From Podarcis erhardii (taxonomy: Eukaryota), in NCBI GenBank assembly GCA_964252035.1, contig OZ176201.1: a stretch of 64,000 bases of DNA; one strand, 5' to 3'. The notes beneath the pieces were generated by a model that was not told the DNA's origin, made no database searches, and saw nothing but the letters and a program-made list of their open reading frames with translations. The position numbers and the translations under genes were made by a program. The stretch's first letter is position 1. Every line of letters starts with the position of its first letter. Below, piece after piece: positions 4,169 to 55,564 of this stretch.

Positions 4169-4709
4169 TGTCAGGAGCCAGAGTCAGGAGTAGGTCAGCA
4201 ATAAAACACCCAGTGTCAGTGAAGTTAATTCTTTATTCAAAGGAACCAGAACAGTGCAGGCCTAGTGATCACAGCAACTCTTCCCAGTAGTCTTGCCCCA
4301 ATGAGGCAGCTACAAGGGCTGGAGGTCCCTGCCTTCCCACCACTCTCTAAGGCTCCCCCCCCCCGGGTTCCTTCCCCAACAGCCTATGGCTCCTTCATCT
4401 TGCTTCCATTTGCTCCACCCTCTTCATTTCTCCACATATTCTGGGAGACCAGCGGGGAGGAGAGCTGGTCACAGCAGGAGAGGAAACTTCCCTGGTTTCT
4501 TCAGCAGCCTGCCTCATAGCTGCCTCTTGGGTCCCCTCCTCTTCTCCTTCTGAGCCCGGACTGCTCTCTGCCCCAGCCTCTTCCTGCTCACTAAACCCTG
4601 ATGCCTCTTCAGCTTCTGGAACCTCCTCCTGAGTCTGCTCCCTTCTCTCTATGGGGGTTCCCCAGCTGGTGCCTCCCACCACTCCTCGGCATCTAGCAAG
4701 TCCATGACA
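4169..4709 (-). mobile_element. Solo LTR A
   Basis: TGTCA...TGACA termini, 5-bp near-TSD TTAAG/TTAGG, AATAAA on the minus strand at 4232-4237. Confidence 0.8.
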
Positions 4710-4838
4710 TTAGGCATGCTGCAGTAAAATGTTAAGTCACCACAACTGGCTGCCCCACTCCCTCTATTCTGAAGTTGTGCAAACCTTTATGTCTGCCCAG
4801 CAGATGCAAAGCCATCTCCCTTTACTACTCTTACCAAC

Positions 4839-5250
4839 TGTAATGGTTGTGAGGGGGTTACTTGTGCGTAAATTGCCTTCAGTTTAGTCAGTTTGTTTGC
4901 TCAACCATGTTTAGGGTTAGAGCTCGCCCTCCGTGACCTGTTAGTCACTTGCAGAATCCGTCAGTGGGCGTTTCTTGAACCTCTTCCAGCATAAAAGCTG
5001 TTTGACCCCAAGTCTCCTCCTATGTTCCCTGCGCGGAACGCGTCTGCGCAAGTGAGGGGAAGGCAGGGGCGTGCCAGCGCTCTCTCCACTAGATTCGGGT
5101 GAAGGGTCTTGGAGCCCTGTCACCAATTCCTCCATCTCCCTCTCTTCTCTATTGGTGTTACGCTGAATTCCTTCCCCTCTGCTGGTCCCCTCTCCGGCAT
5201 CGCTCTGGAGCCCTGCCTCCGCCTCTCGCTCTGATGTCAGTTCCCTGACA
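4839..5250 (-). mobile_element. Solo LTR B
   Basis: TG...CA termini with perfect 5-bp TSD CCAAC (4834-4838, 5251-5255); homologous to 39046-39528. Confidence 0.88.
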
Positions 5251-6835
5251 CCAACCAATTTAGTGATGCCCTCCTGTGATCTGAACTCTAGTCATTAAGG
5301 GGCCACAAGGTTATCAGAGCAATCCTAACCCTGGCGGGGAGCACTGGGGTGCAGCAGCAGATGGACCACTACATCCAAACTCTGGTTGATTATACTGGAC
5401 ATGATGGGGTATTCCCCCCCCCTGCTGTGCTAGCTTCCCACTGCCACAGCAGAGGGGCCCAAAACAGGAGTGGGAGAGCAGCTTTGTATCCAACAGGTCT
5501 ATGGCTCAGCTCTGCCCCTGCCACAGCCCATTTCCAGATCCTAAGCTTGCTACTACTGCACTACACTGAGCAGGTGCAGGGGGAAACAGGTTCTACAGCA
5601 GCCCCGTTACCCCACTGACACAAGCCCAGCAGACGGACACGTTGCCCTATCTTCGCCCCCTCCAGCAGCACAGAGAAGGAAGTTACATTTGTTATTCATG
5701 CTTTCCTACAAGTCACCCTACACTAGAACTTTTAGCCTCATTATCAGAATTACGACTCTGGCAAGAGTCTTGACATTCCTGTCTTCAAAATTTGGAATCA
5801 AGACAGCCTGCATATTTAAGCCAAACTTGTCAAAAAAAAATTAAGGGCTTCATCAGGCTACCTGCCGACTGGAGTGACTAAAATCTCCTTTAACATTTGG
5901 TATCCCTCGCAAAGCAAATAATCACATCAGCTTTTCACTATCTATTAAAAACTTCGGGTTATTCTTTGAAAGGTAACCTGGTACTGTATTGTACAGCAGG
6001 CTACTTTCCCCATGTATCTGTCTCCTCCATTTAATAGTTAACAATAGGGAAATCAAAAGATGAGAAGTTTCATCATCCTCTGGAGAGATTTCTTCTAAGT
6101 CTTAGAGCCAAACTCAACCAGTTCAGTCCCACTGCAGATTTTATAACAAACAAATACCACCACCACTGTTCAGACTAACACTTTGGATTAAGACAGAGAG
6201 TATCTGAGAAAAGCCCAAACTATGACTAGACCCTTGAAACCAGGAATGGATTGTGGTCTAAACAGAACAGACTGTTGCATTATGGGAAGGGGCCAGGATG
6301 AATTTACTTTCTTCTGTGTTATTATGATAATGTCTCTCAGGGGAAGAAAGTACAAACCCACTCCTTTCCAGGAATAGTCCAGTCATAAGAAATTGCCATG
6401 AGAGTGGAAATGAAATGCTAAAACCTGGGTTTCATAATTAACCATTTCATTTATTGCTGACTGTTTTAAAAAAAGAAGAAGCCAATTGGGAGGAATGGAA
6501 AATAAATTCTAAAGCAAATTATCACCCAGGCCATCCAAAGGAAGAGGCAAACTGTGGTGTTGCATCTCAACATGCTTCTGAACTGCTGTGTGTGAGACCT
6601 TTTCTAAAAAGCACATTTCGATTCCATGTTGCATCTGTTCCCACAGGATATGACGTCTCAGTTACAGAACTCCATTATGAGGGAAAGAAGTACTTGAAAT
6701 GAGGGAAACCTCGAAAACCCCTTGCAGAGGAAGTGAAATATACACTACCATTTTAGGGGAGAAGTGTGTGCTTGTGAAAGTTTCCATTTACACTTGGAAT
6801 CAAAAGCATGACAGTTGAAATGCAGCTGCATAGAG

Positions 6836-27284: not shown

Positions 27285-28656
27285 TAGTCCTGGGCAAGAT
27301 ATTGATACATCACCCAGGACCAGTTTGAGGACCAGAGTGTGATGGCGCCTTCACCCAGCAGTATATCGCAGGGGGCATTTACCTGTGTGTTATCTTCTCC
27401 GGCTTCCTCCCTCTCTGCACTGGGTGGTGGCGGTGGTGGAAGCGGCAGTGGTTTCAGTGCGAGATTGGCTCCATTATTATCAAATACTGGAGGTTTATAA
27501 GATGGATAAGAAAATTGGCTTCCAGGTGGAGAAATCCAAATTGGAAACAGAACTGTTAGAATCCAATACTAAGAATTTGTCAAAAATGTATAACTTGCTG
27601 CTGAAATGGAACACGCAGGATGAAACAGTTAAATCAGCTATGATTAAGTGGGCGCAAGATATTGGTCATAACATTATGTTTGCTGACTGGGAAAGGTTGT
27701 GGACCACCAGTATGAAATTTACGGCGTGTAACGCCTTGAGAGAAAATATTATGAAAATGATTTATAGGTGGTACATGACCCCAGTCAAGCTTGCAAAAAT
27801 TTACCACTTATCAGACAATAAATGTTGGAAGTGTAAAGAAAATGAAGGCTCATTTTTTCACCTCTGGTGGACGTGCCCAAGGATTAAGGCATTCTGGGAA
27901 ATGATATATAATGAAATGAAAAAAGTACACCTTCTTGAAGAAACCAGAGGCCTTTCTCCTGGGTATGGTCAGCCATGTGGTGTTAAAGAAGGATAGAACT
28001 TTGTTTTTGTATGCCACAACAGCAGCAAGGATCCTTATTGCAAAGTATTGGAAGATGCCAGATCTACCCACCTTGGAAGAATGGCAGATGAAAATGATAG
28101 ACTACATGGGACTCGCAGAGATGACGGGCAGAATCCGAGACCAGGAGAAAGAGACAGTGGAAGAAGATTGGAAGAAATTCAAGGACTATCTTAACAAATA
28201 CTACAAGATTAATGAATGTTAGATTGACATGGGTTTAAAAATAATGTGGCTTTCAGAGATGCTGAGTAAGAAAAGGAATGGAATTAATAAAAAACTTTTG
28301 GGAAATAAGGAAATGGATTTGCTGATGGAATAACGAAATTAGAATACAAAACGGGGAGGTATGAGGAAGTTGGGGAAATTAGGTTGAGGAAATAAGGTTC
28401 GAAATTATACTTGTTTTTTGTTTATGTTTGTTTTTATTATTGTTGTTTGTATTTGTAAGTTCTTATTGGAAATTTTAATAAATATCATTTTTTTAAAAAA
28501 AGGAAGCGGCAGTGGTTTTAGCCTGCCACCTCACAGGGCCGGGGCAGATGCTGCTTGTTCCTCCCTCCGCTTTTTAACATCATGATGTATCACTATATTG
28601 AGATGTTTGGCTGGAGATATATCACCATGCTGAGAAGCTGATATCGCCCAGCCCTA
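27285..28656. mobile_element. hAT-type non-autonomous element split by an L1 insertion
   Basis: Termini TAGTCCTGGGCAAGATAT...ATATCGCCCAGCCCTA; 8-bp near-TSD ACACCCAC/GCACCCAC. Confidence 0.7.
27455..28501 (+). mobile_element. 5'-truncated L1 LINE (ORF2 C-terminus with Cys/His knuckle, 3' UTR, A-tail)
   Basis: CWKCKENEGSFFHLWWTC motif; ORF continues after one frameshift near 27930 to a stop at 28222; AATAAA at 28477; 17-bp TSD GGAAGCGGCAGTGGTTT (27438-27454, 28502-28518). Confidence 0.92.
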
Positions 28657-39045: not shown

Positions 39046-39528
39046 TGTCAGGGGACTGCCATCAGAACCAGGGAGGGACGCAGGCAGGGGGGCCGTTGGG
39101 ATACAGAGAGCCTCCGAAACTCCTGAGGAGCAGTTCCTCTTCCAGCGGTGAGAAAAGCCACACCTCCAGTGGGGAAGTGAGGGAAGGGGCCAGCCAAGCG
39201 GAGAGAGGGCTTGAGGATGCTGCTAAGAGCCCCAGCACTTCACCTCGCCAGGCTGGCCAGGAGGAACACACAGCACTTTCGTCACCCAGCTTGCACAGAG
39301 GGGTGAAACGCAAGGGGGGTGGAGGAGACTTGGGGTGCCGAAGTTCTTATGTTGGGGGAGAAGCCGAAAGGGACCACTCCCGGATTCTGCAAGTGACTGA
39401 GACGGACATGAACTTGGTAGATCTGTACTGTAAATAGTTTGCACAATTAAACATGTAAAAGACAGTCAGAGTCCTGTAAAAGACAGGTCAGGTGGTTACT
39501 CACGAGTAACCACCACCAGCATCTGACA
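39046..39528 (+). mobile_element. Solo LTR C (same family as B)
   Basis: TGTCA...TGACA termini, perfect 5-bp TSD CTATA, ATTAAA at 39446-39451, 3' end CACGAGTAACC matching B. Confidence 0.9.
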
Positions 39529-53749: not shown

Positions 53750-55260
53750 GCTCACGCGAAACAAATACTGGGAGACAGCAAGAAGCTGGGTGAGGCATCT
53801 TGCAAGAGCCTTGGCGAGGGAGAGCTCACCGCACGCGGCAGGATCTCCTCTCCACAAACACAGCAAGGAGCGCTGCCTCGATCAGGCAAAAGGAAGAGTC
53901 GCCTGCAGGGTTTGTTCTGTGGAGCAAAGAATTCGGCTGCATTTGGACTAGTGTTAAGTTAGGGGCAAGTTAGCGCCGGCTTAAAAAAAGAAAGAAAAAA
54001 GAAACCGGGGTCTGTTTGCTTTTTAATGCAGCGTGCAAATCTGGATAGCGCCACTCGACCTCCCCCACCCCACCCCCCGCGCTCTTTTGCACATGCATTT
54101 TTAACATTGCAAACATTCTGGGCGCATTCTGGGAGGAAAACACGAGAGCTAAAGAAAGCCTCTTCGCACCTCCTCCTCGGGGTTTGAGTTCAGCTCTAGC
54201 GCGTTATCCCACCAAACAGACAAACAAACAAAAAAGCAGCCAGTCACGCGCGAAGACAGAGTGTGCAGGGCATGTGGCAAGTCTAGACACAACTTTCTGC
54301 AAAAGCACCCGGCCTGCTTTGAGGGAGGCATGGAGCGGCTCCGGCCACCAGCTCCATGCCGGCGCCGCCGGCGCCTCCTCCTCCAGGGGGCCGTGCGCCT
54401 CGCCTCGCCTGCTTGCCTGCCTGCCCGCACATCTCCCTCCAGCAAAGCTCCCCCCCCCCTCGCCCAGCCCCGCGCCGCCCCACCAAGCGCGCCGGGTGAA
54501 GCGGGCTCGGCGAGCTGCAGCAAGCGCAGAGCTCCGTCGCCTCACTCACCAGTTTGCACGAGCTCCGCGCTGCTGGGTCGCTTCCCCCCTGCAGTGCAGA
54601 GCCGAGCTGAGCCGGGCCAGGAGGGGGGCGGAGACCAGCGTGCTCCCGGCGGCGGCGGCGGCTCCAAGCGCCGCTTGCGACTCCCGGCAGCCAAGCTGGG
54701 CTGCGCGGGCTCCGGCCGGAGAGAGCTCCCTGCTTGCTGATTGGGCGAGCGGGCAGGCGAGCGAGCGAGCGAGCGGCTGCTCCCCAAACAATGCGCGCCT
54801 TTGCCGAGTCAGCAGCCGCGCGAGGAAGCCCGCGCCGCCGTGCGCTGCTGGCCCAGGGAAGAATTCCAAGAATGATGGAATTCTCTTCCTAGCAGGTGGG
54901 GAGAGCCGCGCGGCCCCATTGGCTGCGGCGCCCATGAGATCAGCATACATTAGGATAATGAGGCCCTGACATCACATCCTCAGCAGGTAGAAAAGGGGAG
55001 GGCGAAGGGGGAGAGGCAGGAGGTACCTCAGCTGAAGGGAAGAGCCGGGTTGGGGAAGGGAGCCTTGAGCTGCCGTGACCCCTCCGGGGAGGAGGGTCGG
55101 CGCCGGCATTTATAACGCCCCCCCCCCACACACTTCTTCCTCTTTCCTCTGACTCCACCTCCTTTGCTGCAGAGTTTTCAGCGTAACGGGCTCCGGGCGG
55201 GAGGAGAGGAATAAGCGTTCCCCCCCCCCCATCAATTAGATGGGACGTTCCTCTATCCTG
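53750..55260. promoter_or_regulatory. VGLL4: CpG island, main VGLL4 promoter
   Basis: Very GC- and CpG-rich against a CpG-depleted background; CCAAT boxes on the minus strand at 54740-54744 and 54918-54922; (GGC)n and (GCGA)n tracts. Confidence 0.9.
54550..54800 (-). other. VGLL4: VGLL4 non-coding first exon (5' end approximate)
   Basis: Strong donor CTG|GTGAGT at 54549 within the CpG island, upstream of an exon that begins with an acceptor 13 nt before the ATG. Confidence 0.7.
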
Positions 55261-55564
55261 TCTCCTTTTCTGCATTTCGGATGTGCTCTGTGTCTCCCTT
55301 GAAGTCAACATACAGACATTTCAAAAATAATCCGAGAAATAAAGCATCAGAAATAGGTGCATATGAAAACACACGTTTTTGGATTGCATGTGTCAGAGCA
55401 CTGAATATACTAAGTTGAACAAGCTTCATTCAGCCTTTCATTTGGTAGTATTATTGCTTGCTTACTACGGATGACATTACTGTTTCCATGGCAACATTTC
55501 TGCGCCCAGAGTACACCCTGGCAAAAAACCAGAATCTGACCCTAGAAGTAGCAAAATGAATTTC

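Follow-up and report, generated by a model that had tools for sequence, protein, structure and literature searches.

The open reading frame that fills most of a solo long terminal repeat (LTR) in the genome of the lizard Podarcis erhardii almost certainly encodes the C-terminal 102 residues of a retrotransposon's Pol/integrase protein and is kept by purifying selection. The LTR lies in a 64,000-nt stretch of contig OZ176201.1 (GCA_964252035.1), which was analysed as a whole and is called the window below. We concluded that the LTR frame is a real, selected coding sequence within an LTR and not a new accessory gene. In the best explanation of the whole, to which we give about three chances in four, the reading frame for the Pol tail crosses the polypurine tract and continues within the 3' LTR, and the tail is under selection and ends in a basic, Cys-Trp-containing tip that would serve as a nuclear-import signal or chromatin tether. 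A vertebrate LTR would then have a U3 that combines a promoter region, a self-primer and 100 codons of selected integrase sequence. The Pol-tail reading also explains the stop-free frame in solo LTRs across the genome, and such frames can mislead gene annotation.

The solo LTR, of a subfamily designated B, occupies positions 4839-5250 on the minus strand and is 412 bp long with TG..CA ends, which were set by comparison of the 5' and 3' LTRs of four two-LTR elements. The first-pass annotation had ended the LTR at 4941; that position is the end of the stop codon, and the true LTR is 102 bp longer. The 5-bp sequence GTTGG (read on the minus strand) is present as a target-site duplication upstream at 5251-5255 and downstream at 4834-4838, and because it is duplicated on both sides of 4839-5250 the window copy is a true solo LTR. 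In a genome search with the window LTR the matches were all 97-100% alike (40 scored of 2167 candidates), and LTR B represents a young subfamily of a Tf1/sushi-type Ty3/Gypsy chromovirus. As described earlier, the frame on the minus strand is open from the second base of the LTR (5249) for 102 codons up to a TAA at 4943-4941 (ORF, 4941-5249), with the peptide as first reported. Codons 1-60 (5070-5249, minus strand) form an acidic, Ser/Thr-rich linker (15 D/E and 12 S/T) that is predicted to be disordered and differs in length between subfamilies by whole codons. The basic block that follows (4968-5069, minus strand) is the conserved part of the tail and contains, in order, a Ser/Thr-Pro site, an Arg-rich run, a hydrophobic patch, Cys-Trp (4991-4986) and KRFKKR (4985-4968), the last of which we take to be an NLS-like stretch. 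An 11-nt self-primer at 4955-4965 (minus strand; LTR positions 286-296) overlaps the last codons of the ORF. The statement that the LTR holds no ATG had to be corrected: four are found on the sense strand of LTR B, and the one at codon 39 (5135-5133, minus strand) is in frame, varies between subfamilies and lies upstream of the presumed transcription start.

The original argument for coding came from LTR C, an older solo LTR of a related subfamily at 39046-39528 on the plus strand, flanked by duplicated CTATA. LTR C carries the same frame and end motif as LTR B, but the window copy is broken by stops and shifts. The codon-for-codon alignment of the two holds over a 40-codon block and needs a one-base gap near 39320, the window LTR C being frameshifted with stops. 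Within this block our counts came close to the earlier ones without reproducing them exactly: 24 of the 40 residues are identical (17/26 plus 7/14), 9 of them through synonymous codons, where 23 and 8 had been given. The stop is at the same place and differs as reported, since LTR C likewise ends in DSASD and has TGA in place of the TAA of LTR B. Taken alone, the 102-codon open frame is weak evidence, and the comparative signal is far beyond chance; the Pol frame was open in 1.5% of 20,000 base shuffles, and some frame of the six in 23%.

Other features of the window were recorded along the way. LTR A (4169-4709, minus strand, 541 bp) belongs to a different, older family, lies 130 bp from LTR B and has flanks that agree at 4 of 5 bases; its copies show a decayed reading that starts at base 2 and is Trp-rich, acidic and then basic. 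A genome pattern search for LTR A joined to internal sequence gave 0 matches and a full-length element was not found, so that the LTR A frame could not be tied to pol. The stretch at 27343-28222 (plus strand), judged by eye, is LINE-like and presumably a C-terminal fragment of a LINE reverse transcriptase (RT), and positions 54000-55300 form a GC-rich, CpG-island-like stretch with long chance ORFs.

Four LTR pairs 4.5-5.1 kb apart were retrieved as two-LTR elements. They encode gag, protease, RT, RNase H, integrase, an SH3 domain and a chromodomain but no env, and neither an env nor a third ORF lies between integrase and LTR in any of the four. Their 5-bp flanks match, as do those of the window's LTR, and each element has breaks or a deletion elsewhere. 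A Pfam search of the integrase-frame ORF found Integrase_H2C2, rve, SH3_Tf2-1 and Chromo, the LTR part being without a match; the chromodomain (PF00385) scored above the cut-off and is folded in the AlphaFold2 model. The best PDB match of the RT is Ty3 (E=6e-67), with retroviral and foamy virus RTs at about 1e-21, and the element's gag matches PEG10. The sequence that follows the 5' LTR lacks a tRNA-type site; instead, the complement of LTR positions 286-296 lies 2 nt behind the LTR. Of 30 elements, 23 have a perfect complement, 5 have one with a single mismatch and 2 have none that could be located; three variants of the self-primer sequence co-vary on both sides. Self-priming from the RNA's own 5' end is given as a mark of the Tf1/sushi group in the available text of PMC6317226 and PMC4600332, and LTR position about 286 would correspond to the 5' end of the element's RNA. 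By every feature tested, rather than by tree placement, the element classifies as a Tf1/sushi-type Ty3/Gypsy chromovirus without env, and not as a retrovirus. As to the genomic distribution of these elements, 57 of 86 integrase matches fall on a single small contig of 30.4 Mb (C19), possibly a W-like repeat refuge, and six near-identical copies of one frameshifted element (L145-L150) lie within 230 kb on contig C13 (42.56-42.79 Mb), which suggests segmental or tandem amplification.

All four two-LTR elements have an integrase frame that continues past the polypurine tract, enters the 3' LTR and terminates at the stop codon of the LTR frame; an internal ORF crossing the tract into the LTR frame, as had been envisaged, is thus present. 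A sequence pattern for the polypurine-tract/LTR junction gave 1249 genomic matches vs. 4 for the reversed control, and 70 of the 71 junction copies on contig C1 were examined. Over the first 285 nt the Pol frame was stop-free in 65 of these 70 copies, compared to 0 and 1 copies for the other forward frames and 1, 43 and 0 for the reverse frames. The motif [LF][CY]W is reached in frame by 62 of the 70 copies, and 44 have an unbroken reading from the chromodomain to the end motif. Intact tails are 95, 96, 100, 102, 105 or 109 codons long, that is, they differ by whole codons. The 70 copies are not independent, since one young subfamily, with its 96-codon tail, accounts for 29 of them, and the junction pattern is biased toward young copies. 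Among the best-matching copies of each family, the frame is open from base 2 to the motif in 30/30 for family B, 18/20 for family D and 8/30 for the older family C. In another family (L096:145 onward, minus strand), a frame is open for at least 200 codons past a tract/LTR-like junction. Contigs from four runs guessed to be RNA were mapped on one element; they were short and came from related copies, and no GT..AG joint was seen among the 8 joints listed.

Selection was estimated from 21 natural representatives below 93% identity (pairwise 52-93%), taken out of 79 copies open to the end motif; openness was itself a criterion of choice, and the absence of stops from these copies therefore carries no weight. 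Codon models gave a dN/dS of 0.36 for the LTR part (2dlnL 133 vs. 1); taken separately, the linker had 0.47 and the basic block 0.21, vs. 1.4-2.6 in the other forward frames. The proposal that the frame is protein-coding and under selection is borne out by these values. One antisense frame, open in 43 of the 70 junction copies, also had a low dN/dS (0.48 in the 21 copies, 15 stops masked), which we attribute to a shadow effect, its third positions being shared with the Pol frame. In 7 representatives spanning integrase to stop, out of 42 copies with 330 open codons upstream, dN/dS was 0.05 both for the integrase core plus SH3 domain and for the chromodomain; within the LTR, the linker had 0.33 and the basic block 0.11. 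Constraint on the linker is weak (0.33-0.47). The synonymous sites of the final seven codons are nearly fixed because the self-primer sits there, and since these codons are fixed at the DNA level, DSASD is no evidence of protein function. Cys and Trp are invariant in 22 aligned copies including distant subfamilies. The basic run, the hydrophobic pattern and Cys-Trp persist on unrelated DNA in eight distant copies, whose tails have 65-86 codons, three further distant copies have the basic-Cys-Trp pattern in a shifted frame, and protein P0129 has the whole tail layout. The exception is the distant protein P0176, of the L096 family, which ends in a basic run with Asn-Trp where others have Cys-Trp.

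The following mechanism is proposed. Pol would be made by a -1 shift at a GGGAAAC site, which is found at the end of gag in all four two-LTR elements; -1 frameshifting is the mechanism of PEG10 and the sushi elements. The tail would stay on mature integrase as a long disordered arm made up of the chromodomain, two acidic FxGF motifs, the acidic linker and the basic tip. In the AlphaFold2 model the chromodomain and one following helix fold, and the blocks of the LTR part have pLDDT values of 41-53, mostly below 50. The basic tip, KRFKKR with the preceding Ser/Thr-Pro site, may act in nuclear import or chromatin binding of the integration complex. Going by its composition and by analogy, we lean slightly toward a tether or NLS function for the basic-Cys-Trp tip. 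The solo LTR of the window would be a passive copy made by reverse transcription, and with 95 of the 102 codons upstream of the presumed RNA start, its own promoter could hardly drive expression of the ORF. The family or structure match that had been sought for the peptide did not appear: Pfam on the 102-aa ORF returned 0 families, and a PDB profile search with the tail alignment returned 2 chance-level matches (E about 1). The idea that the Arg..Leu-x-Cys-Trp tip resembles the CENP-C motif was rejected. CENP-C is not among the PDB profile matches; the Pro and the aromatic pair, which we take to belong to the CENP-C motif, are absent from the tip; and the 71 junction matches of contig C1 range over 4.7-140 Mb without clustering, on an assembly in which centromeres are unannotated and maybe under-assembled.

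A different fate of the tail, cleavage from Pol by the element's protease, would yield a small basic protein that binds RNA or DNA or contacts membranes via its Cys. The long disordered linker between the tip and the folded part in the AlphaFold2 model would allow this, and the invariant Cys stands beside hydrophobic and basic residues, a setting that resembles acylation sites. We regard cleavage as unlikely, since the variable linker shows nothing like a conserved cleavage site and since, in the available text of PMC3059260 and PMC4600332, the integrase C-terminus acts in cis for targeting in the described plant and fungal chromoviruses.

Much less probable, and already largely refuted, is that the pattern results from DNA or RNA signals in U3/R together with purine-rich composition, the peptide being a neutral run-on. 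The self-primer does fix the last codons, a TTTTAT box overlaps Leu-Leu-Cys in subfamily B, and the shuffles show how often some frame is open by chance. The earlier caveat that cis signals could mimic the pattern is correct for the last seven codons, and for that stretch alone. Against a neutral run-on, the last 47 alignment columns are gap-free, so that the alignment did not create the selection signal, and differences in this block at codon positions 1/2/3 amount to 0.26/0.14/0.41, an excess at the third position. Arg is kept through four different codons at two invariant columns, the low dN/dS is frame-specific, distant subfamilies without the T-rich box retain Cys-Trp, and indels come in whole codons.

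The separate nef- or sag-like accessory protein first suggested, with its own start codon or a spliced RNA overlapping U3, has the smallest odds of all. In its favour, the frame is under selection and Arg/Lys-rich, and subfamily B offers the in-frame ATG at codon 39. Against it, no stop divides the LTR frame from the ORF upstream, which is pol itself, with integrase, SH3, chromodomain and acidic tail. No Met after the chromodomain is conserved: its position varies with the subfamily, and it is missing altogether from 3 of 12 copies taken from different subfamilies. The codon-39 ATG is upstream of the presumed RNA start, and between integrase and LTR the element carries neither env nor any third ORF.

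The Pol tail that ends in the LTR also has distinctive features upstream of it, outside the window. Between the chromodomain and the polypurine tract (L141:1212-1445, plus strand, and equivalents) there are two tandem acidic FxGF motifs, both present in 37 of 40 distinct readings and a single one in 3 of 40. The strict form S/E-x-F-x-G-F occurs at least once in 37 of 40 readings and twice in 10 of 40, and the acidic linker before FxGF is 8 or 9 residues long in 75 of 77 motif instances. In shuffles, two or more FxGF motifs arise by chance with P = 0.0014, and dN/dS for the two motifs is 0.07 and 0.09 (7 copies). AlphaFold2 places a helix (59-67, pLDDT about 60) before motif 1 and three helical residues before motif 2. 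The available text of PMC9987994 describes the TND-interacting motif, needed by LEDGF and HRP2 partners, as a helix, an acidic linker of 8-16 residues and FxGF, and that of PMC7337902 gives S/E-x-F-x-G-F as the IBD-binding consensus. By sequence the FxGF motifs fit this LEDGF/HRP2-binding definition and are a candidate for integration targeting. The genome encodes LEDGF-family exons. A profile of the two-motif region matched no PDB chain at E up to 10, in a library containing IBD-motif fusion chains. Complex prediction of the lizard LEDGF IBD (P0008 400-489) with the first FxGF motif (33 residues) scored 0.17 vs. a mark of 0.34, with controls not folded and a tool unproven on peptides. If the motifs do bind LEDGF or HRP2, a retrotransposon would be mimicking a motif of host transcription elongation for integration targeting.

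In 11 readable copies of the chromodomain itself (L141:1053-1200, plus strand, and equivalents), neither the first nor the third cage position is occupied by Tyr, Phe or Trp. Since the dN/dS of the chromodomain is nevertheless 0.05, it is probably kept for something other than canonical methyl-lysine reading. A profile search with P0136 found chromodomains and chance matches only, among the 60 of 65 PDB matches listed. A chromodomain lacking these two cage aromatics resembles the group II type, which the available text of PMC3605345 reports from plants only. As a tentative and rather doubtful synthesis, lizard sushi-type elements may have rebuilt the targeting arm of integrase by losing the cage, gaining two mimics of the LEDGF/HRP2 motif and adding the LTR-encoded basic-Cys-Trp tether, which together would steer integration to transcribed chromatin. 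If so, they would use the same host reader as HIV integrase, reached by copying a short motif of the host. Lentiviral integrases use LEDGF through folded domains.

A profile search of 1.84 billion representative sequences listed 150 matches, nearly all restricted to the chromodomain, and among those 150 the matches looked up that reach past the chromodomain into the tail are from Podarcis muralis or unlabelled. Neither the acidic FxGF nor the basic-CW motif was found in 34 matches with the canonical chromodomain pattern, many of which are partial gene models. Of the proteins that carry a species name, the closest are from Podarcis muralis. A separate observation concerns a Podarcis muralis gene model for a phospholipid-transporting ATPase (P0005, UniRef), which ends in about 45 residues of LTR tail; this end is either an annotation artefact or an LTR exonisation. 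In the literature searched there was no report of a vertebrate LTR-encoded integrase tail or of a retrotransposon FxGF motif, and none linking the TND-interacting motif with retrotransposons; Repbase, subscription papers and supplements fell outside that scope and may note the overlap. The available text of PMC3601003 and PMC8149907 has nothing on vertebrate LTR-encoded integrase tails. We concluded that Pol running into the 3' LTR is already established in plant chromoviruses and that the vertebrate case is undescribed within the literature searched.

HIV nef, MMTV sag and foamy virus bel are separate ORFs expressed from spliced RNAs of env-bearing retroviruses. The lizard frame shares with them a coding sequence that overlaps U3, and differs in being the end of pol in an env-less retrotransposon. 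Given that the ORF is a pol end with no conserved Met, in an element with no env, nef, sag and bel are the wrong comparison, and the layout of the plant CRM elements is closer. According to the available text of PMC3059260 and PMC3605345, the gag-pol ORF of CRM group A (Beetle1/Beetle7) and of Bingo1-4/7 in the Reina clade crosses the tract and reaches into the 3' LTR; what the LTR encodes in CRM is a conserved motif at the integrase C-terminus with a putative role in targeting (CR motif). The lizard Pol ORF likewise extends into the 3' LTR, a likeness of layout. In CRM the CR motif, downstream of the tract, replaces the chromodomain, whereas the lizard element has a chromodomain upstream plus an LTR tail of 65-116 codons; CRM has a tRNA-Met primer site and a plant host, the lizard element a self-annealing primer and a vertebrate host. 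The lizard element is not a member of CRM because it keeps the upstream chromodomain and self-primes.

For the FxGF motifs, the nearest counterparts are the TND-interacting or IBD-binding motifs of IWS1, JPO2, PogZ, KMT2A and DPF3a, which, going by the available text of PMC9987994 and PMC7337902, have the same arrangement of acidic Ser/Thr-rich linker (8-9 residues in the lizard) and FxGF, preceded in the known motifs by a helix; as in JPO2, the motif is present twice. The known examples are host proteins, whereas the lizard case is the Pol tail of a retrotransposon. Overall, the element is most like the Tf1/sushi group (GyDB V-clade: Sushi-ichi, Amn), as described in the available text of PMC6317226 and PMC4600332, in its domain order, chromodomain, self-priming, PEG10-related gag and Ty3-closest RT, and it differs from that group in that its chromodomain is followed by a tail of about 200 residues, half of them encoded in the LTR.
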